Of a DNA stretch of 64,000 nt, positions 1 through 11,278 are shown piece after piece. Position numbers and translations under genes: made by a program. The DNA comes from Escherichia coli (GTDB lineage Bacteria > Pseudomonadota > Gammaproteobacteria > Enterobacterales > Enterobacteriaceae): NCBI RefSeq assembly GCF_044324875.1, contig NZ_CP172185.1; one strand, written 5' to 3'. The notes below the pieces were generated by a model, which searched no databases, was not told the origin of the DNA, and saw only the letters and a list, made by a program, of their open reading frames with translations. Within the stretch, counting starts at the first letter, position 1. Each line of letters begins with the position of its first letter.

Positions 1-300
1 GTCGTACCGCTGAACGTTTTGGTGTTGAAGAAACATCAGAGCGATGCTGGGTCAAGGGCTGGCAACTCCACGGTATTGATGGTATTACATGGCAAAATGA
101 CCGCGGCTCTCCTGAGTTTCGACTGACAGTTGTCCTGAAGGTTTGAGTGAAGAACTTACCATGCGCTAGGCCACTACACAGTTTAATATATCAAATGAAA
201 CCATTATCTGGCACTGGGTGAAGGTTTACAAAGATACTGGTGAAGAAGGACTTATGAACATAAACCAGGCCGGAGCAAGGACATGACAAAACTGTCACGA
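1..300 (+). pseudogene. Degenerate IS3-family (IS150-group-like) transposase orfA remnant
   Basis: Plus-strand frames give interrupted HTH-type transposase motifs (RFGVEETSERCWVKGWQLHGIDGITWQNDRGSPEFRLTVV and NISNETIIWHWVKVYKDTGEEGL) that parallel the two HTH repeats of the intact IS150-like OrfA at 61215-61736; broken by stops, no ORF in the track. Confidence 0.35.
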
Positions 301-988
301 ACGGCGCAAAAGTGGCTCTTCCTTGGATGTATCTCTATATTTTCATACATCTGTTATCACTTAACCTGTTACTGTCCTTCAAACGCAGGAGATTCAGGGG
401 GCCAGTCTAACCGCTAAGAACATGTTCCCGAAAATTGAGATAAACACGTTATGACAGCAACGTAAAATAAAACAGCGTTTTTTAGTCATAATGAACATGT
501 AGAGTCCGTTTGTTCATACTCTGTGATTATCTCCATACGTTCATCTCTGGCGCTGCCAGATAGCGTTTTCGTTCTTACAGTCAATGCGCACCCGATACTG
601 AATATCGGCTTTCTTCCCCCGGGCGGTGAGATGCACTGTGACTAAATTATCACCTTTACTTACCAGCTCACGAAGATTCACCCAGACAACAGGATGCTGC
701 TGACTGAAGATCACCTAGTCATCTTTCCAGTGAAGCACCTGTTTCTGGAGATAGTCCCGTTTGACGCTGGCTGCAACAGCCGATGATTCCTGCCCTTCAC
801 ATCGTGGAAAACTGACGGTTCTGTTTTTATCAGTAGCCAGTGATGATACACAAATACCGAAGGTGAGCAGAATTGAAGAGAGTGTTTTGTTTATTTACAG
901 AACCCCATCATGGATAGCTCATTGTATTATTACTTTACATTTTAACAACATAAAATATCACTTTCAGAAGCAACAATCACATAACTTC

Positions 989-2101
989 TTATCCATTATT
1001 AATCACCTTATACAACGGGAGCATCGCCGCGCCGCATGACGCACTCTGTGCTCCCATCGAAGAGGCAGCTAACTTCACTCTGGGGCGGTTGGGATCGAGG
1101 CAGGCTTCCATCAGTTGATTCAGTTCCTGCACCAGACGACTGATAATCGGTTTCGGCATCGCGCCACCGAGTACGATGATTTGCGGGTCTACCCACTGCA
1201 CACAGCTGAAGAGCGTCTGCTCCACCTGGCCACGACAGCGTTCAAACCAGCTTTCCAGCAGTGGGTGCTGCCCGGCTATCAGCTCCGGTAGCTTAGTTTC
1301 ACTGAATCCTTCACGCTCCAGTGTGGCAAGCAAATCCTTATACGACGGGCGCGGTGTACCGGATGGAAACGCCATCCCGACTTCACCGGCATTGCAGAAC
1401 CCGCCGCGTAGCATTTTATTCCCGGAGATAATACCCGCGCCGATACCGTAGCCAAGGTCGATAAAGGTTAGATCGCTGTACGCATTCCATTTGCCGCTGT
1501 ACAGTTCACCTACCGCCGAGGCGTTGGCATTATTTTCCACCCACGTCGGCCACGGCAGGTTGTCGGCAAACGCCTGCTGGAGATCTACCTCACGCCAGCT
1601 CTCCAGCCACGGTACGCTGTGGCGCTTGCGACCATCCGCTTTCAGAAATCCGGGCACTGCATAGCCAATGCCGAGAATACGTGCGTGCTGGAGCTGGCGC
1701 TTTTTCAGCATTTTCTCCACCAAGGTTTTGATCTGCGCGAGAGAGGCCTCCAGTGGCTGATTCTCCTGATGTGCTTCGCAAAGCGACAGCAGCTGGCGAC
1801 CACTGAGATCGACCACCGTCATATCGATAAAACCGGGACTGAACGACAACCCGATAGCACAACCGCCGCCGGGGTTAAGGCGCAACGGCAGCGACGGCTG
1901 GCCGCGCTGCCCGGTATTGCGCTCCCCTTCCACCACCAGGCCGGAGAACATCAGCTCTCGGCACTGTTGGGTGATCGCCCCCGCCGTCAGTCCCGACAGC
2001 CGTGCCAGTTCAGCCCGCGTCACCGGGGCGTGGAGACGGATCAGTTCCAGCAGCAGGCGCTGCGAACCACGTAGTTCAAGGCGTTCAGAGTGGGCGTTCA
2101 T
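989..2101 (-). CDS. ROK-family transcriptional regulator (NagC/Mlc-like)
   Basis: 370-aa ORF, ATG at 2099-2101; N-terminal HTH (VTRAELARLSGLTAGAITQQCRELMFSGLV) followed by glycine-rich sugar-kinase-like ROK fold (GIGYAVPG, DLGYGIGAGII). Confidence 0.8.
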   Translation of the reverse strand: MNAHSERLELRGSQRLLLELIRLHAPVTRAELARLSGLTAGAITQQCRELMFSGLVVEGERNTGQRGQPSLPLRLNPGGGCAIGLSFSPGFIDMTVVDLSGRQLLSLCEAHQENQPLEASLAQIKTLVEKMLKKRQLQHARILGIGYAVPGFLKADGRKRHSVPWLESWREVDLQQAFADNLPWPTWVENNANASAVGELYSGKWNAYSDLTFIDLGYGIGAGIISGNKMLRGGFCNAGEVGMAFPSGTPRPSYKDLLATLEREGFSETKLPELIAGQHPLLESWFERCRGQVEQTLFSCVQWVDPQIIVLGGAMPKPIISRLVQELNQLMEACLDPNRPRVKLAASSMGAQSASCGAAMLPLYKVINNG

Positions 2102-2116
2102 GGTGTCCTTATTTTT

Positions 2117-2947
2117 CTAGTTCCAGCGCAGGCCTGCTTCTTCAATCAGTCCCTGCAAATACGGAATATCATCGTGGCTGAGCATATCAATCAGCCCCGC
2201 CTGCATCCAGCCGATAATCACCGGACGACTGTCACAGCCGAATTTATAGTCGTACTGCTCCAGCGGCGTCATGCCGTTTTTCATTTCATGCAGATACATC
2301 CGCACGCCCAGTCCGGCATTTTTGTAGGCCCGCAGGTCGTCGATATGGGCGAACTCGAACTCAAAGCAGACGCATCCGGCATTGGACTGCTGTACCGCCG
2401 CAAGCTGGTTATTGTAGCGCTCCAGCGTCACCACCTGTAACGCCAGTTGCGGGATTTGCGCCTTCACCCGGTTGATCAGCACATGGTTGAAGCCCAGCAA
2501 CTGGATATGGCCGAGGGCATCCAGATGCTCATGCAGCAGTGCGACCAGCGCCGCCACAAACTCGTCATGGCGGTTGCGCTGTTTGACCTCAACAATCAGC
2601 CCCATGCTGTTTTCCACCGCCCAGCGCAGCACGTCCGCCAGCAAGGGGATGCGCGTTCCGGCAAACGACGGATGGTATTTCACGCCAAAGTCGCACGCCA
2701 GCAGCTGCGGGTACGTCATCTGCTCCACAAATCCGTGTCCGGTGGATACCCGGTCGATACGGTGATCGTGCGTGACCACCAGTTGGTTATCCGCCGTCAG
2801 GTGGATATCGATTTCAATACAGTGGGTTCCCGCCAGGCGGGCGGCTTCAAAGGCCGGGAATGTGTTCTCCGGCGCGCAGCTGGAATAACCTCGGTGGCTG
2901 TTGGCCAGCACGATCCCCTCTGCCGCCCGGTGAAAGTTAAACGCCAT
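2117..2947 (-). CDS. Glycerophosphodiester phosphodiesterase family protein
   Basis: 276-aa ORF; GDPD hallmarks HRG...ENT (LANSHRGYSSCAPENT) and E-x-D-x-H (IEIDIHLTADNQLVVTHD); 15 bp upstream of the ROK gene on the same strand. Confidence 0.8.
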   Translation of the reverse strand: MAFNFHRAAEGIVLANSHRGYSSCAPENTFPAFEAARLAGTHCIEIDIHLTADNQLVVTHDHRIDRVSTGHGFVEQMTYPQLLACDFGVKYHPSFAGTRIPLLADVLRWAVENSMGLIVEVKQRNRHDEFVAALVALLHEHLDALGHIQLLGFNHVLINRVKAQIPQLALQVVTLERYNNQLAAVQQSNAGCVCFEFEFAHIDDLRAYKNAGLGVRMYLHEMKNGMTPLEQYDYKFGCDSRPVIIGWMQAGLIDMLSHDDIPYLQGLIEEAGLRWN

Positions 2948-3162
2948 CTTCTTTTCCTCTCGAATGTAAGATGGTAATTAACTTTACTACTTAAATTTAA
3001 ATGTGAAAGATGTTTTTGTTATTTTATGGTTAATCCATTGTTTTATATGCTTTTAATTTGATATTTAGATCATTTTTTAGCTTTAAGGATCTGTGTCACA
3101 TAAATTTAATGTTTAGTATGTAAATTTAATAATCATCTTTTTAACCGATAGAAGAGAGACTC

Positions 3163-4230
3163 ATGTCAAAACTGGTTCTGGAACAGGTGACCAAAACCTT
3201 CGGCGAATTCTATGCCGCCAGGGAAATCTCGTTCTGCGCCGAAGAGGGGGAGTTCGTGACCCTGCTTGGGCCGAGCGGCTGCGGTAAAACCACCCTGCTG
3301 AAAATGATCGGCGGTTTTCACCAGCCGGACAGCGGACGCATTCTGATTGGCGATAAAACGGTCAACGCCCTGCCGCCAGAAAAGCGCAATACCGCCATGT
3401 GTTTCCAGTCCTATGCGCTGTTTCCGCACCTCAACGTGGCACACAACATCTGCTTCGGCCTGAAGCAGAAAAAAGTCGCTATCAGTGAACAGCAGGCCCG
3501 GCTGGCGGAGGCGCTGAAGCAGGTGGGGCTGGAGAGCCAGCGCCTGAAAATGCCCGCCCAGCTCTCCGGCGGCCAGCAGCAGCGCGTGGCGCTGGCGCGG
3601 GCGATGATCACCCGCCCGGACGTGATCCTGTTCGACGAACCGCTCTCCAACCTTGATGCCAAGCTGCGCGAAAGCGTGCGTTTTGAAATCAAGGAACTCC
3701 AGCGGCAGTATCAGCTCACCTCGATCTACGTCACACACGACCAGGCGGAAGCGCTGGCGATGTCGGATAAAATTGTGGTGCTGAACGCCGGTAATGTTGA
3801 GCAAATAGGCAAACCGGAAGAGATTTACTACCGTCCGGCCAACCGCTTTGTGGCCGACTTTATCGGCGCGGCCAATATCGACACCGCGCAGGTCACGCCC
3901 TCAGAGCAGCCGGGCTATTACCGGGTACGCTGTGCCCTCGGCGAGTTTTATGTGCATTCCGTACAGCCGCCACGCACAGAGCACTGCTATATCTGCTGGC
4001 GACCGGAAGATGCGCAGTATGTCAGCCAGCCTCAGGCAGGCAACAACCACTTCTCCCTGACGCTCGACAAAATGGCCTTTATGGGCAACCTCACCGAAGC
4101 CTGGGGCCACAACGACAGCGGGTTATCGGTCCGCTTACATCTAATTAAAAAGCCGCCCGTCGCCCCCGGCGAGAGTGCCTGCTTCCGTCTGGCGGAAAAC
4201 GCCATCCATTTTCTGGAGCCGGTATCATGA
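3163..4230 (+). CDS. ABC transporter ATP-binding protein (PotA/MalK/UgpC-like)
   Basis: Walker [10 protein letters not shown], signature [14 protein letters not shown], Walker [13 protein letters not shown]-terminal regulatory-type domain; ATG 3163; stop overlaps next start (ATGA at 4227). Confidence 0.9.
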
Positions 4231-5093
4231 AAAACTGGCGCAATGATGCGGTCGCCTGGCTGCTGATGCTCAGCGGGCTGGGCACGATCCTACTACTGAT
4301 GGGATCGACGTTTTATGTGGTGATCGTCCAGAGCCTGGGCTGGTTCAACATCGAAGGCGACAGCAATTTCTCGCTGGAATACTGGCGCAATATGTTGCAG
4401 GACGAAGTGTTGCAAAGCGCCCTGTTCTACTCAGTGAAAGTGTCACTGCTGGGGTCGTTCGGCTCGGTGATTTTCGCCTATCCGCTGGCGCTGTGGCTGC
4501 GTAAACCGATGGCCTATAAAGAGGGCATTATCGCGGTGCTGCGTGCGCCGATGTTTATCCCCGGTCTGGTGGCGGCGTTTCTGTTCGTCAATATCGTCGC
4601 TTATCACGGCATTATCAACGAACTGCTGCTGGCGCTGGGGATTATCAGCGAGCCGCTGCGGATGCAGAACGATGACTTCGGCTGGGGCGTGGTTATCCTG
4701 CAAATCTGGAAAAACCTGCCCTTCGCCCTGATCCTCGTCGGCGGCGCAGTCAACGCCATCCGTAACGACGTGCTGGACGCCGCCAGCAATCTCGGTGCCA
4801 GCCGCTGGCGCAGTTTTACCGGCGTGGTGGTGCCGCTGACGCTGCCCGCCGTGCAGGTGACGCTGATTCTGGTATTTATCGGCGCGCTGGGCGACTTCGC
4901 CTTCTTCTCGGTGGCCGGGCCACGCAACACCTACTCGCTGGCGCGGCTGATGCAGGCCACCGCCATGGAGTACGGCGAGTGGAATAACGCGGCGGTGATT
5001 GCGGTGATCATTATGGTCACGGCGGCCATCTGCACGTTGCTGATTGCCACACTGATTACCCCGTTCGCCACCCGCAAAGGAGAGGTCAAATGA
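4227..5093 (+). CDS. ABC transporter permease subunit 1
   Basis: 288-aa hydrophobic multi-TM protein translationally coupled to the ATPase; stop overlaps start of the next permease. Confidence 0.85.
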   Translation: MKNWRNDAVAWLLMLSGLGTILLLMGSTFYVVIVQSLGWFNIEGDSNFSLEYWRNMLQDEVLQSALFYSVKVSLLGSFGSVIFAYPLALWLRKPMAYKEGIIAVLRAPMFIPGLVAAFLFVNIVAYHGIINELLLALGIISEPLRMQNDDFGWGVVILQIWKNLPFALILVGGAVNAIRNDVLDAASNLGASRWRSFTGVVVPLTLPAVQVTLILVFIGALGDFAFFSVAGPRNTYSLARLMQATAMEYGEWNNAAVIAVIIMVTAAICTLLIATLITPFATRKGEVK

Positions 5094-5146
5094 GCCACAC
5101 TGATTACCCCGTTCGCCACCCGCAAAGGAGAGGTCAAATGAGCCAC
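5051..5146. repeat. Perfect 48-bp tandem duplication (2 copies) spanning the permease1 stop / permease2 start
   Basis: actgattaccccgttcgccacccgcaaaggagaggtcaaatgagccac occurs at 5051-5098 and again at 5099-5146; read directly. Confidence 0.9.
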
Positions 5147-5974
5147 ACTGCCAACGGTTGCCGGGTGGTGACGATTTCGCTGATCTTCTTCGTGGTCGCT
5201 AATCTGATCTGGCTGGGCATGCCGTTCGGCATGGCGATCCTCTGGTCGCTGGTTGACCCGGCCCATCCGTGGAGCTACCCGGATATCTTCCCGCCCGTGC
5301 TGTCGTTCAGCCGCTGGCTGCTGGTATGGGAAAAGACTTCGCTTTCCGAGGCGCTGTTCAACAGCTACACCATTGCGCCTGCGGTAGCGGTCGCCAGCCT
5401 GCTGCTGTCGCTACCCACCGCGTATGCCTTCGGGCGCATGACCTTTCGCGGTAAGGCGGTGGCGGAGATGCTGACGCTGATCCCGCTGGTGATGCCGGGG
5501 ATGCTGATCGGGATTTTTTTCAGCGCCATGCTGATCAACCTCAATATCGACAACGCGTTTATCAGCATTGTTATCGGCCATACGGTACTGACGCTGCCCT
5601 ATTCGATCCGCATTATGTCTGCGGGGTTTAAGTCGGTGCCGCAGGATCTGATCGACGCCAGCCGCGACCTGGGCTCCGGCGCGTGGGACACCTTCTGCAA
5701 TGCCTATCTGCCGCTGCTGAAACCGAGCTTCCTGGCGGCGCTGATTTTTTGTCTGGTGCGAAGCCTGGAAGAGTTCAGCATCTCATACGTGCTGGGCGCG
5801 CCGGACTTTATCACCGTTCCGACCATTCTTTACTCTTTCCTTGGCTACTCCTTCGTCCGCCCGGATGCGGCGGTGGTGTCGATGATTCTGGTGATCCCCA
5901 ATGTCATCCTGATGGTCATCATTGAGAAGTTGCTGAAGGGGAACTATCTGTCGCAATCCACGGGAAAAGCCTGA
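5090..5974 (+). CDS. ABC transporter permease subunit 2 (N-terminus affected by 48-bp duplication; alternative start 5138)
   Basis: 294-aa hydrophobic ORF; first ATG at 5090 lies in duplication copy 1 and adds 16 residues (MSHTDYPVRHPQRRGQ) before the second MSHT at 5138. Confidence 0.8.
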   Translation: MSHTDYPVRHPQRRGQMSHTANGCRVVTISLIFFVVANLIWLGMPFGMAILWSLVDPAHPWSYPDIFPPVLSFSRWLLVWEKTSLSEALFNSYTIAPAVAVASLLLSLPTAYAFGRMTFRGKAVAEMLTLIPLVMPGMLIGIFFSAMLINLNIDNAFISIVIGHTVLTLPYSIRIMSAGFKSVPQDLIDASRDLGSGAWDTFCNAYLPLLKPSFLAALIFCLVRSLEEFSISYVLGAPDFITVPTILYSFLGYSFVRPDAAVVSMILVIPNVILMVIIEKLLKGNYLSQSTGKA

Positions 5975-5995
5975 CCTTTTACAGGAGATAATGTG

Positions 5996-7072
5996 ATGAA
6001 AAAAACAGTGATGATTCTGGCGGGCGGCCTGCTGTGCAGCTCGCTGGCAACGGCGGCGGATAGCCCCGACCTGATTGCCCAAGCGAAAAAAGAGGGCAGC
6101 GTGACCTTTAACGTCTGGTACTTACAGCCGCAGTGGCGCAGCTTTGTGAAGGATTTTGAGCAGCAGTACGGTGTTAAGGTGCGCATCCCGGAAGGGAATA
6201 TCGACGGAAACGTGAACAAGTTGCTGGCAGAAGCGGGGAAAAAAAAAGGTAAAATAGATGTTATCGCCTTGTCTGTTGCGCAACTGCCAGTGGCAATGGG
6301 AGCGAAAGCGCTGGCGAAGGTGGACGATTTGCCGGGCTATGGCGACGCCATTCACCAGATTCAGAACGTTGACACCCAGGGTTATGCCGTGGCGTTCTGG
6401 GGCAACCAGACCGGATTTGCTTACGACCCGCAGCAGATGGGTGACCGGGCGCTGCCACAAACGCTGGAGCAGTTGCAGAGCTTTATCGACGCCAACCCGA
6501 AAAAGTTCGGCTATAACGACCCGAACAACGGCGGCGCTGGGGAAGCCTTTATCCAGCGCATCGTCACTACTCAGGGCGACACGTTTAACAGCGAAGCGGA
6601 GAGCGTTGACCCGGCAGTGGTGAAAAACTGGCAGAAAGGCTGGCAGTGGTTTGCCGCTAATAAGGACAAAATTACCCGCACGGCCTCCGGTGCTGATAGT
6701 CTGACACGCCTGAATGACGGCGAGCTGATGCTGACACCATCCTGGGAAGATCATCTTGTCGGACTACAAAAAACCGGGGCTATCAATTCGCGGCTGAAAT
6801 TTTACGTACCGGAGTTTGGCATGCCTGGCGGCGGTAACATCGCTGCCATTGCCGCCAACAGCCCACATCCGGCGGCATCACGCTTATTCCTCAACTGGCT
6901 GATTCAGCCTGAAACGCAACATGCACTGAGTAAAGTCTTCGGCTCCACGCCGATGAACAAACAGCTCCGTCCGGATCTGAATGAGATCCCGGAGCCCACG
7001 GTGGAGTTTTATGGCAAAGCGTACAGTACACAGCTCAAAAAAGATTTCGTTCGTGAGGTCATGATGCAGTAA
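5996..7072 (+). CDS. ABC transporter periplasmic substrate-binding protein (family-1 SBP)
   Basis: Signal peptide MKKTVMILAGGLLCSSLATAADS; about 358 aa; last gene of ATPase-permease-permease-SBP operon; track start 5993 is GTG, ATG at 5996. Confidence 0.85.
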   Translation: MKKTVMILAGGLLCSSLATAADSPDLIAQAKKEGSVTFNVWYLQPQWRSFVKDFEQQYGVKVRIPEGNIDGNVNKLLAEAGKKKGKIDVIALSVAQLPVAMGAKALAKVDDLPGYGDAIHQIQNVDTQGYAVAFWGNQTGFAYDPQQMGDRALPQTLEQLQSFIDANPKKFGYNDPNNGGAGEAFIQRIVTTQGDTFNSEAESVDPAVVKNWQKGWQWFAANKDKITRTASGADSLTRLNDGELMLTPSWEDHLVGLQKTGAINSRLKFYVPEFGMPGGGNIAAIAANSPHPAASRLFLNWLIQPETQHALSKVFGSTPMNKQLRPDLNEIPEPTVEFYGKAYSTQLKKDFVREVMMQ

Positions 7073-7167: not shown

Positions 7168-7692
7168 ATGAAACGTAAACTTATTGCCTTTGTGATTCTG
7201 GCTACATCATCCTGTGGATATGCAGCCACCAAAGATGTAACAATGAATCTTGTTGATAGTGACGGAAAAGAGCGAAATATTGGTAAAATAACCATCCAGA
7301 AGACACCCTACGGGCTGCTGTTCACCCCTGATCTTCACTCCTTACCCGCCGGCATTCATGGTTTTCATGTACATGAAAACGCAAGTTGTGCTCCTGCCCT
7401 GAAAGATGGAAAAACTGTCGCTGCTTTATCTGCAGGTGGTCACTTTGACCCGGAAAAAACAGGGAAGCATCTCGGTCCATGGTCTCCTGATGGCCACCTG
7501 GGTGATCTCCCTGCGCTTTATGTCACTCATGACGGAAAAGCAACCTACCCGGTGCTTGCGCCAAGACTATCTGAATTAAAGGAGCTCGATGGCCGTTCGC
7601 TAATGCTCCACGCAGGAGGTGATAATCATGATGACCATCCTGAACCTCTAGGTGGCGGTGGTGCAAGAATTGCCTGTGGTATCATCCCATAA
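7168..7692 (+). CDS. sodC: Periplasmic Cu,Zn superoxide dismutase (SodC-family paralog, diverged from the K-12-type SodC as I recall it)
   Basis: Signal peptide plus Cu/Zn-SOD motifs [34 protein letters not shown] 7168. Confidence 0.85.
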
Positions 7693-8045: not shown

Positions 8046-8400
8046 ATTCGATACCTCAATGCTTACAACAGAAAAGTATACTTTTACGAAGTTCGCCTTT
8101 GCAGGAGTATATAAAGTTATCACTGGATGCAAGAGCCGGAAATCATGTATATCAGGATCAACTTTGTAATTCAATAACATATTATCCAGTGAAAAAGTAA
8201 GTATATTTAAGCTGGGGAAGGAGAAGGGGGACTTGATTTGATATTTTCATCAATAATATTATTTTTCCTCCTCCATTATTCATTCAGACCTGGTTCCGGG
8301 CGTAATTCCTAGACTGGCCCCCTGAATCTCCAGACAACCAGTATCACTTAAATAAGTGATAGTCTTAATACTAGTTTTTAGACTAGTCATTGGAGAACAG

Positions 8401-8766
8401 ATGATTGATGTCTTAGGGCCGGAGAAACGCAGACGGCGTACCACACAGGAAAAGATCGCAATTGTTCAGCAGAGCTTTGAACCGGGGATGACGGTCTCCC
8501 TCGTTGCCCGGCAACATGGTGTAGCAGCCAGCCAGTTATTTCTCTGGCGTAAGCAATACCAGGAAGGAAGTCTTACTGCTGTCGCCGCCGGAGAACAGGT
8601 TGTTCCTGCCTCTGAACTTGCTGCCGCCATGAAGCAGATTAAAGAACTCCAGCGCCTGCTCGGCAAGAAAACGATGGAAAATGAACTCCTCAAAGAAGCC
8701 GTTGAATATGGACGGGCAAAAAAGTGGATAGCGCACGCGCCCTTATTGCCCGGGGATGGGGAGTAA
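8401..8766 (+). CDS. insC: IS2 transposase OrfA (InsC)
   Basis: [56 protein letters not shown]; 121 aa. Confidence 0.9.
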
Positions 8767-9629
8767 GCTTAGTCAGCCGTTGTCTCCGGGTGTCGCGTGC
8801 GCAGTTGCACGTCATTCTCAGACGAACCGATGACTGGATGGATGGCCGCCGCAGTCGTCACACTGATGATACGGATGTGCTTCTCCGTATACACCATGTT
8901 ATCGGAGAGCTGCCAACGTATGGTTATCGTCGGGTATGGGCGCTGCTTCGCAGACAGGCAGAACTTGATGGTATGCCTGCGATCAATGCCAAACGTGTTT
9001 ACCGGATCATGCGCCAGAATGCGCTGTTGCTTGAGCGAAAACCTGCTGTACCGCCATCGAAACGGGCACATACAGGCAGAGTGGCTGTGAAAGAAAGTAA
9101 TCAGCGATGGTGCTCTGACGGGTTCGAGTTCCGCTGTGATAACGGAGAAAAACTGCGAGTCACGTTCGCGCTGGACTGCTGTGACCGTGAGGCACTGCAC
9201 TGGGCGGTCACTACGGGCGGCTTCAACAGTGAAACAGTACAGGACGTCATGCTGGGAGCGGTGGAACGCCGCTTCGGCAACGAGCTTCCGGCGTCTCCAG
9301 TAGAGTGGCTGACGGATAATGGTTCATGCTACCGGGCTAATGAAACACGGCAGTTTGCCCGGATGTTGGGGCTTGAACCGAAGAGCACGGCGGTGCGGAG
9401 TCCGGAGAGTAACGGCATAGCAGAGAGCTTCGTGAAAACGATAAAGCGTGACTACATCAGTGTCATGCCCAAACCAGACGGGTTAACGGCAGCAAAGAAC
9501 CTTGCAGAGGCGTTCGAGCATTATAACGAATGGCATCCGCATAGTGCACTGGGTTATCGCTCGCCACGGGAATATCTACGGCAGCAAGCCAGTAATGGGT
9601 TAAGTGATAACAGGTGTCTGGAAATATAG
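8724..9629 (+). CDS. insD: IS2 transposase OrfB (InsD), DDE catalytic domain
   Basis: 301-aa ORF overlapping insC; WCSDGFEF...HWAVTTGG...WLTDNGSCY...HSALGYRSP. Confidence 0.9.
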
Positions 9630-10149
9630 GGGCAAATCCAATTCCGATTTCTCTGTTGAAGCGATGCATTTATATTTAAATATTCACCTGTCATTGAATT
9701 TTATTTGAAATAGGAGAAAATCTCCTCCTGTACTACAGATAACCCGGAATGTTCCTCGAAAGAAAATTCTGGCGCAGAATTCACGCCCGGTTCTGTTCAA
9801 CATCATGCAGGATAACGATACCGAAACGTTAAACTCTGGCAATTCTCGTGTTATACACAGGCAGGAGTGATTACTACGGTAAGAATTGCTGAAAAGGGGA
9901 GAACACTGAAGGCCTTATTCGCGAAGAATAAAGGAGACATTTCATGTAAATTATTATCAGAGATAACCTTCTCCAGGCGCTTTTGTTCGCTTCCTGAATT
10001 GCTACCTGATACATATTTACGGGATGCCAGCCTGGTGACTATAACTCCGAAAAGACCGATTATTGTATTGCGTGCATCCGGCATGTTTACAATGTACGCT
10101 GGTATCTAACGGAGTCTGACACAGATGCACGCAGGTGTATATTTTAACG

Positions 10150-11013
<864 letters not shown>

Positions 11014-11258
11014 TAATTACACTGTGGGTTGACGCCGGAAGAATCAGAGAACAGATACCGTTCTTACTGTAAAACGTGGCTAATATTAATTGAGCACTGC
11101 AGTGTTCAGAGCACAAAGAAGAAAAAAGATGTGTGCGAATGCCTGTAATGTGTTAAAAGAATGTTCCGCGTTTCCGGTACGCTTTTCGTAACTAACAATG
11201 CAGGGTGACGTAACGCTGGTTGTGCCGGAAACGCGTCCCTCCCCCTATCTTTCCTGTT

Positions 11259-11278
11259 TGGATTTGCCCCTATATTTC
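11259..11278 (-). repeat. Solo 20-bp remnant matching the IS2 right terminal repeat
   Basis: tggatttgcccctatatttc equals the reverse complement of the IS2 end gaaatataggggcaaatcca; match ends after 20 bp. Confidence 0.45.

Follow-up and report, generated by a model that had tools for sequence, protein, structure and literature searches.

What does a bacterium take up through an ATP-binding cassette (ABC) importer whose genes lie beside those of a phosphodiesterase and a ROK-family regulator? The question is raised by a six-gene locus in a 64,000-nucleotide stretch of Escherichia coli DNA (contig NZ_CP172185.1, RefSeq assembly GCF_044324875.1; hereafter the window, meaning the whole stretch). 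An earlier note, made from the sequence of the window, had read the locus as a glycerophosphodiester phosphodiesterase (GDPD) family enzyme and a ROK regulator lying divergent to an ATPase-permease-permease-binding protein operon, and had proposed that a glycerophosphodiester-like or related phosphoester compound, its exact identity left unassigned, is taken up and hydrolysed under the control of a sugar-responsive repressor. All six genes are found so placed, and the functional proposal is supported, since the six-gene unit is conserved across at least 21 genera, the binding protein lacks a polyamine, iron or thiamine match, and the locus is nearly absent from E. coli; of the two halves of the proposal, the context speaks for the 'related phosphoester' rather than for a classical glycerophosphodiester. 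Very probably, the locus serves to take up a phosphodiester that is then cleaved in the cytoplasm, with a locally encoded ROK protein as repressor. The suggestion that this substrate belongs with xanthosan and agrocinopine as a sugar or polyol phosphodiester, rather than being a phospholipid head-group diester, has at least an even chance of being right, and the reading of the whole as a self-contained, horizontally mobile nutrient-scavenging cassette for such an opine-like compound is, in our estimate, somewhat favoured.

The six open reading frames (ORFs) are all present and undamaged, and are full length against distant homologues (Table 1). RefSeq annotates identical copies of the locus with matching, generic gene names.

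Table 1. Features of the locus and its surroundings in the window (aa, amino acids; IS, insertion sequence)
Feature	Position	Strand	Size	Remarks
ROK regulator	989-2101	-	370 aa	winged helix-turn-helix and ROK domain
GDPD phosphodiesterase	2117-2947	-	276 aa	without signal peptide
Divergent control region	2948-3162		215 bp	AT-rich
Site A	2977-3002			footprint; palindrome TTAAATTTAA at 2991-3000
Site B	3095-3131			footprint; TAAATTTAAT at 3101-3110 and 3121-3130
ABC ATPase	3163-4230	+	355 aa	PotA/UgpC/PhnT type; first gene of divergent operon
ABC permease 1	4227-5093	+	288 aa	PotB-like; start overlaps ATPase stop codon
Perfect tandem duplication	5046-5141	+	48 bp	at permease 1 stop/permease 2 start junction (ATGA overlap)
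ABC permease 2	5090 or 5138-5974	+		PotC-like; start overlaps permease 1 stop
Solute-binding protein	5993-7072 (RefSeq ATG 5996)	+	359 aa	periplasmic; Sec signal peptide
IS2-end relic	323-409	-	87 bp	left edge of IS-bounded segment
Complete IS2	8310-9640	+		right boundary; outside functional locus
Further IS3-family remnant	about 10.2-11.3 kb			
Another exact IS2 right-end copy	11258-11278			adjoins IS3-family remnant
YebF-family pseudogene	about 542-841	-		
sodC	7168-7692			

The nature of the imported compound is suggested by the gene content of related loci. We compared 75 such loci and clustered their neighbour genes; 70 of them have an ORF for the binding protein, which is longer than 300 aa in 67. 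The ROK gene is present in 49 of the 70 loci (27 genera), the 276-aa GDPD in 34 (21 genera), and a 2H phosphoesterase (Pfam PF08975, DUF1868) in 20 (8 genera), while no other neighbour family exceeds a few genera. Among the 67 loci with a long binding protein, one or both phosphodiesterases adjoin the transporter in 45: GDPD only in 26, 2H only in 12, which include every alphaproteobacterial locus with a phosphodiesterase, and GDPD together with 2H in 7. The other 22, two of which have the ROK gene only, are mostly from Haemophilus, Aggregatibacter, truncated contigs or distant lineages. In an alignment of 59 binding proteins from Enterobacterales, Pasteurellaceae and Vibrionaceae, 48 columns, rich in Trp, Tyr, Asp, Glu, Arg, Ser, His and Asn, are invariant, and these columns stay invariant or nearly so in the 67-locus set, whichever phosphodiesterase adjoins. 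Because two non-homologous phosphodiesterases thus pair with one unchanged binding protein, the imported compound is most simply a phosphodiester, of one ligand class.

Rarer neighbours point to the product of cleavage. Phosphomannomutase is found in loci of the Vibrio coralliilyticus type, and an inositol monophosphatase (IMPase) family protein in Photobacterium, Pacificibacter and one Rhizobiales genome. A sugar-1-phosphate or polyol-phosphate product would fit, because these enzymes, together with OmpC/PhoE-type porins (L090, L091), accompany some relatives. The V. coralliilyticus-type loci (L004, L060-L063, L073, L086) have the transporter without GDPD, and their flanks encode a CpsG-like phosphomannomutase, the DUF1868 enzyme, ROK, a 533-aa protein and a mannosylglucosylglycerate-synthase-like glycosyltransferase. 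The literature on the DUF1868/2H family gave nothing usable. Orphan DUF1868 genes also occur on E. coli plasmids, at 9878-10678 of L097 (pbAPEC5202) and on three others, all IncF-type, of poultry or human origin, and beside maintenance genes; there is no transporter near them, and we set them aside as evidence.

The binding protein itself does not point to a named ligand. It matches Pfam SBP_bac_8 (E 2e-31) and has a cluster-D fold; the mature form is expected to cover about residues 23-359. NCBIfam models assign it to no family at cut-off; those for PotD, PotF, FbpA and thiamine-binding proteins give no match at E 0.001 or better, and the best, PRK11622, reaches 61 bits against a cut-off of 203. 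Sequence matches in the PDB are marginal, none being better than E 2.8e-5. The AlphaFold model is of good quality (mean predicted local distance difference test score 89.7), and the nearest solved structures are just 13-19% identical; phosphonate, sugar, UgpB, polyamine and iron binders appear among them with near-equal scores, so that the ranking is non-discriminating. Homology and structure, which were among the checks that the earlier note had recommended, therefore reveal no clear membership of the polyamine, iron or thiamine families, the identities that by its account would refute the proposal. The family ranges over Enterobacterales, Pasteurellaceae, Vibrionaceae, rhizobia and a few more distant lineages; none of the sources gives it a functional name, the label being 'extracellular solute-binding protein'.

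The membrane and energizing components are likewise generic. The ATPase matches Pfam ABC_tran, and its best NCBIfam models are PhnT2 (361 bits), UgpC (333.8 bits; cut-off 432) and PotA, all below cut-off, with the ferric-ATPase and PotA models at about 300-330 bits. Both permeases match Pfam BPD_transp_1, with PotB and PotC as best NCBIfam models, again below cut-off (permease 1 scores 80 bits against PotB; cut-off 348). By the same models, neither a UgpB-type binding protein nor UgpA/UgpE permeases are found in the locus. The 48-bp duplication at the junction of the permease genes keeps both reading frames. Permease 2 is 294 aa long from the first ATG (5090) and 278 aa from the duplicated ATG, the start chosen by RefSeq; the duplication therefore either lengthens the protein by 16 N-terminal residues or repeats the ribosome-binding site and ATG unchanged. 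An alignment in one piece across it is seen only with the three closest E. coli genomes; the other E. coli copies match in two segments and fall short by about 48 bp.

The window GDPD (Pfam PF03009, E 7.5e-27) is predicted to be a cytoplasmic enzyme of the UgpQ/AccF type. Residues H18, R19, E45, D47, H60, E120 and K122 are invariant among 35 homologues. UgpQ is its best named model, at 107 bits and under the cut-off of 264. In pairwise comparison, the enzyme is 31% identical to AccF of the agrocinopine plasmid pTiC58 over 256 aa (115 bits, full length) and 28% identical to E. coli UgpQ over 205 aa (80 bits). Among rhizobial plasmids, its closest homologue is encoded on pNGR234b, in a cluster with a LacI regulator, a sugar-type ABC transporter and an IMPase.

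The regulator matches Pfam ROK (E 3.7e-24) and, above cut-off, HTH_24, and aligns over its full length with PDB entry 7rhe (E 4e-29). The NCBIfam Mlc and NagC models give about 70-74 bits, against cut-offs of 530-650, and the zinc motif CxCGxxGC of Mlc, NagC and ROK kinases is absent from the window protein and from all 50 aligned family members. Where this motif would be, the subfamily (the window protein and 49 homologues) has a conserved RPS...L segment. The protein presumably represses both of the divergent operons. An alignment of 12 enterobacterial intergenic regions indicates that the control region is poorly conserved save for two blocks, sites A and B, common to genomes from E. coli through Proteus and Pantoea. 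The element TAAATTTAA occurs in three exact copies across the two sites and nowhere else in the window. We propose sites A and B as candidate ROK operators and promoter elements. A promoter scan of the region gave weak consensus matches only, from which we draw no promoter conclusion.

From the observed gene content, intactness, synteny, associations and footprints, we infer transport, substrate class, direction of regulation and effector as follows. The periplasmic binding protein would capture an anionic phosphodiester, and the two permeases and the ATPase would bring it into the cell. The cytoplasmic GDPD would then cut it into an alcohol or sugar and a phosphomonoester, which could enter central metabolism. 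The ROK protein would repress both divergent operons from the TAAATTTAA-containing sites, and a cleavage product would release it, an effector suggested by analogy with AccR of the agrocinopine system.

The distribution of the genes is that of a mobile unit. The complete locus is present in 20 of 5,426 complete E. coli genomes, chiefly chicken isolates, and truncated remnants occur in further E. coli genomes; the locus is accessory in this species. In a human isolate, a 78%-identical allele forms a clean insertion between rsmJ and dtpB, and, because this insertion holds just those six genes, the unit extends exactly from ROK through the binding protein. The six genes are kept together across at least 21 genera, and the cassette is conserved through Enterobacterales, Vibrionaceae and Pasteurellaceae; in Salmonella they are carried by an integrative conjugative element, and they are also found on a plasmid-like contig. 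The Yersinia pestis cassette (L019, L010) looks decayed, with an interrupted or truncated ATPase (245 aa) and a gap in place of permease 2, and a 291-aa GDPD with a signal peptide lies downstream of its binding protein. The cassette is not described in the literature that was searched.

A possible origin of the substrate is suggested by a second group of GDPD-derived enzymes. In Xanthomonas, the GDPD-derived enzyme AvrBs2 makes xanthosan, a cyclic galactose phosphodiester (Wang et al., Science 2025, PMC12807533). Encoded in the same cluster as AvrBs2 are XanR, which is a ROK regulator, the outer-membrane transporter XanT, and XanP, a 2H phosphoesterase that hydrolyses xanthosan to galactose-1-phosphate (PMC12807533). 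AvrBs2-like proteins were noted in five genera, among them Salmonella, Providencia and Pasteurella, and the authors closed by asking whether such enzymes of human and animal pathogens serve a similar private-nutrient strategy (PMC12807533). In our set of loci, the cassettes of Providencia, Proteus, Salmonella and contig L091 have as neighbours GDPDs of 620-640 aa, for which AvrBs2 is the best NCBIfam model. Such an enzyme lies at 10001-11887 of L090 in Salmonella and at 888-2816 of L005 in Providencia. Homologues of the 642-aa Providencia enzyme, which likewise matches AvrBs2 best, cover four of the five genera listed in that study (Salmonella, Corynebacterium, Providencia and Trueperella). 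Two large GDPD paralogues lie beside the cassette in Salmonella (L090), together with a PhoE-like porin, and in L091, whose binding protein is 80% identical to that of the window, together with an OmpC-like porin. The large enzymes bear Sec signal peptides. In the second paralogue (L090 11884-13608; L091 2832-4571), HRGD is replaced by KGD or NGD and the first catalytic histidine is gone, and it may be a non-catalytic partner. A Trueperella pyogenes locus with a large GDPD is alike in layout; since both the binding protein and the small GDPD encoded there are only remotely related to those of the window, we treat it as analogy, not orthology.

The E. coli copy is the consumer half only, for uptake and breakdown, without AvrBs2-like enzymes or porin. 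It is tempting to suppose that animal-associated Enterobacterales run a counterpart of the plant-pathogen strategy to 'make, take up and use' a sugar phosphodiester, an extension that we think more likely wrong than right by a wide measure. In that case Salmonella, Providencia and Proteus would produce a purpose-made phosphodiester with their exported AvrBs2-like enzymes, the ABC/GDPD/ROK cassette would consume it, and poultry-associated E. coli with the consumer half alone might exploit the compound made by co-resident bacteria.

Several observations weigh against an opine-like substrate and its production by AvrBs2-like enzymes. AccF scores 108 bits against UgpQ, about the same as against the window GDPD; because AccF and UgpQ are themselves alike, the affinity of the window enzyme to AccF is weak evidence. 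The matches of the large GDPDs to the AvrBs2 model are weak, at 48-52 bits against a cut-off of 1000, and these proteins, being exported and not type III effectors, may be hydrolases or depolymerases rather than synthetases. There is no AvrBs2-like gene in the window, nor was one found in the 5,426 E. coli genomes at blastn sensitivity, which more divergent copies could escape; the source of the substrate for E. coli is for this reason hypothetical. No Xanthomonas sequence is among the 120 DUF1868 profile matches listed, and none was found by plasmid tblastn. In Xanthomonas itself, xanthosan did not induce xanT and xanP, and deletion of xanR caused no significant change in lesion length (PMC12807533).

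Other substrates have to be weighed against the sugar or polyol phosphodiester. The locus could duplicate the role of Ugp, taking up classical glycerophosphodiesters that derive from phospholipids (glycerophosphocholine, -ethanolamine, -glycerol or -inositol). Glycerol-3-phosphate would then be set free by the GDPD, and the ROK protein would respond to the alcohol or to a sugar formed downstream. Consistent with this, the catalytic residues mark the enzyme as a genuine GDPD, UgpQ is its best named model, the UgpC model gives the ATPase 334 bits, the IMPase of a few relatives would suit glycerophosphoinositol, and a mycobacterial UgpB is among the structural neighbours of the binding protein. 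However, the binding protein and permeases are not relatives of UgpB, UgpA and UgpE, the 2H enzyme replaces or accompanies GDPD in 19 of 67 loci with the binding-protein residues unchanged, and there is linkage to genes for phosphomannomutase and AvrBs2-like enzymes. Furthermore, ROK repressors typically sense sugars, and E. coli already possesses Ugp and GlpQ. On balance, we consider a glycerophosphodiester scavenger rather unlikely. Decidedly improbable is an importer of phosphomonoesters or phosphonates, such as hexose phosphate (as in AfuABC) or 2-aminoethylphosphonate (as in PhnSTUV), with the phosphodiesterase serving some other purpose. PhnT2 is indeed the best model for the ATPase (361 bits), PhnS matches the binding protein weakly, the PhnS-like STM0429 and the glucose-6-phosphate-binding AfuA and VcA0625 are among its structural neighbours, and the Pasteurellaceae Haemophilus and Aggregatibacter retain the transporter without any phosphodiesterase; but all of these scores are far under the family cut-offs, phosphonate catabolic genes are absent nearby, and the transporter shows close and recurrent linkage to two different phosphodiesterase families.

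The same linkage, together with that of the ROK regulator, speaks against an importer of polyamines, iron or thiamine (PotABCD, FbpABC or ThiBPQ type) with unrelated neighbours. Such an importer would agree with the PotB and PotC matches of the permeases, with the scores of about 300-330 bits that PotA and ferric-ATPase models give the ATPase, and with weak sequence matches of the binding protein to HitA iron-binding proteins (E about 1e-4). Yet the binding protein has none of the PotD, PotF, FbpA or thiamine model matches expected, and is 13-18% identical to the corresponding structures, not above its identity to sugar binders, making this the least credible of the alternatives. It is also very unlikely that the cassette is inert cargo, stranded between IS elements, whose expression or usefulness in E. 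coli has been lost. IS elements flank it, truncated remnants occur elsewhere in E. coli, the Y. pestis copy is decayed, and the operon contains a tandem duplication; against this, the six frames are full length with catalytic and binding residues intact, the control-region footprints are retained, and the duplication spares both frames.

The surroundings of the cassette agree with the earlier note's description of an IS-bounded locus, in that an IS2-end relic marks the left side and a complete IS2 the right. The relic consists of 52 nt resembling the right inverted repeat, a 13-nt spacer and an exact 22-nt left inverted repeat; it is inverted relative to the intact IS2, with whose ends its own ends form inverted-repeat pairs. 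TnpA and TnpB of the intact element exceed the NCBIfam IS2 cut-offs, and a 5-bp target duplication, ATTCC, flanks it (8305-8309 and 9641-9645). Because RefSeq annotates no IS2 at this position in strain 135, which is identical otherwise, the insertion appears to be recent and strain-specific. Two further genes lie inside the IS-bounded segment, and neither accompanies the cassette in other species: the YebF-family pseudogene, with an internal stop according to the RefSeq annotation of the identical strain 135 copy, and an extra gene for a periplasmic Cu,Zn superoxide dismutase, sodC (SodC model 218 bits; cut-off 165). The right-hand neighbours in strain 135 are genes for LysR, ankyrin, DUF2877, FdrA, YlbE and carbamate kinase proteins, which we take to be the yahB-yahI region of K-12.

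The locus offers a concrete handle, in the form of a conserved importer, hydrolase and regulator, on the question of AvrBs2-like enzymes in animal pathogens. The cassette is physically linked to such enzymes in Salmonella, Providencia and Proteus, and is carried on an integrative conjugative element and a plasmid-like contig; its interest rises if this link in animal-associated bacteria holds. Were the 'make, take up and use' strategy to apply, the ABC system would be the kind of inner-membrane step missing from the description of xanthosan. Once the substrate is identified, a function could be assigned to a whole transporter family of Enterobacterales, Vibrionaceae, Pasteurellaceae and rhizobia, and the locus might help to explain why E. 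coli lineages associated with poultry would be at an advantage. Should the substrate be an ordinary glycerophosphodiester, the locus is a routine accessory scavenging system.

Comparison with known systems places the parts of the cassette. Like NagC and Mlc (nagE-nagBACD), its regulator combines a winged helix-turn-helix with a ROK sugar-sensing domain and is associated with a divergent promoter region. NagC uses a paired-site arrangement for looping, and the two conserved AT-rich sites in the window are about 110 bp apart. The window protein is unlike NagC and Mlc in its far sub-cut-off model scores and in lacking the zinc-cysteine motif. With E. coli UgpBAEC-UgpQ, the locus has in common an ABC importer coupled to a cytoplasmic GDPD and a UgpC-related ATPase. 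Its permeases, by contrast, are PotBC-like and its cluster-D binding protein is unassigned, every Ugp model scores below cut-off, and its regulator is a local ROK repressor, whereas Ugp is controlled by the Pho regulon.

The agrocinopine operon (accR, accABCDE, accF, accG) also combines a repressor, an ABC importer and a cytoplasmic GDPD, its order on pTiC58 being repressor, binding protein, ABC transporter, GDPD (AccF) and IMPase (AccG). Once imported, the sugar phosphodiester is cleaved by AccF, and the repressor has as its effector the sugar phosphate so formed (PMC4526662). Specifically, AccR is of the DeoR type, whereas the window regulator is a ROK protein; AccA is a cluster-C peptide-type binding protein served by an Opp-like transporter with two ATPases, whereas the window has an SBP_bac_8 protein and a single ATPase; and the IMPase-type phosphatase AccG has a counterpart in some relatives and none in the window. 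The agrocinopine system belongs to a plant pathogen, the window to an animal-associated E. coli. Acs, the enzyme that produces agrocinopine, belongs to the AvrBs2 clade.

The xanthosan system, for which XanR and XanP were compared by description only, likewise joins a ROK regulator to phosphodiesterase catabolism of a sugar phosphodiester. The related loci have in common with it the 2H enzyme, GDPDs matching AvrBs2 and, in fuller versions, outer-membrane uptake genes. The HxT/S motifs of the 2H enzyme, which is found in 19 of the 67 loci, are 101-105 residues apart, resembling the spacing of H99 and H204 in XanP. The window, by contrast, is without an AvrBs2-like gene, 2H enzyme or TonB-dependent transporter, would cleave with a UgpQ/AccF-type GDPD in place of the 2H XanP, and would import across the inner membrane by an ABC system, none being described for xanthosan in Xanthomonas; in its relatives, the AvrBs2-like proteins are Sec-exported and not type III effectors. 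With these likenesses and differences, the locus joins Ugp, Acc and Xan among the known loci for the uptake of phosphodiester nutrients.

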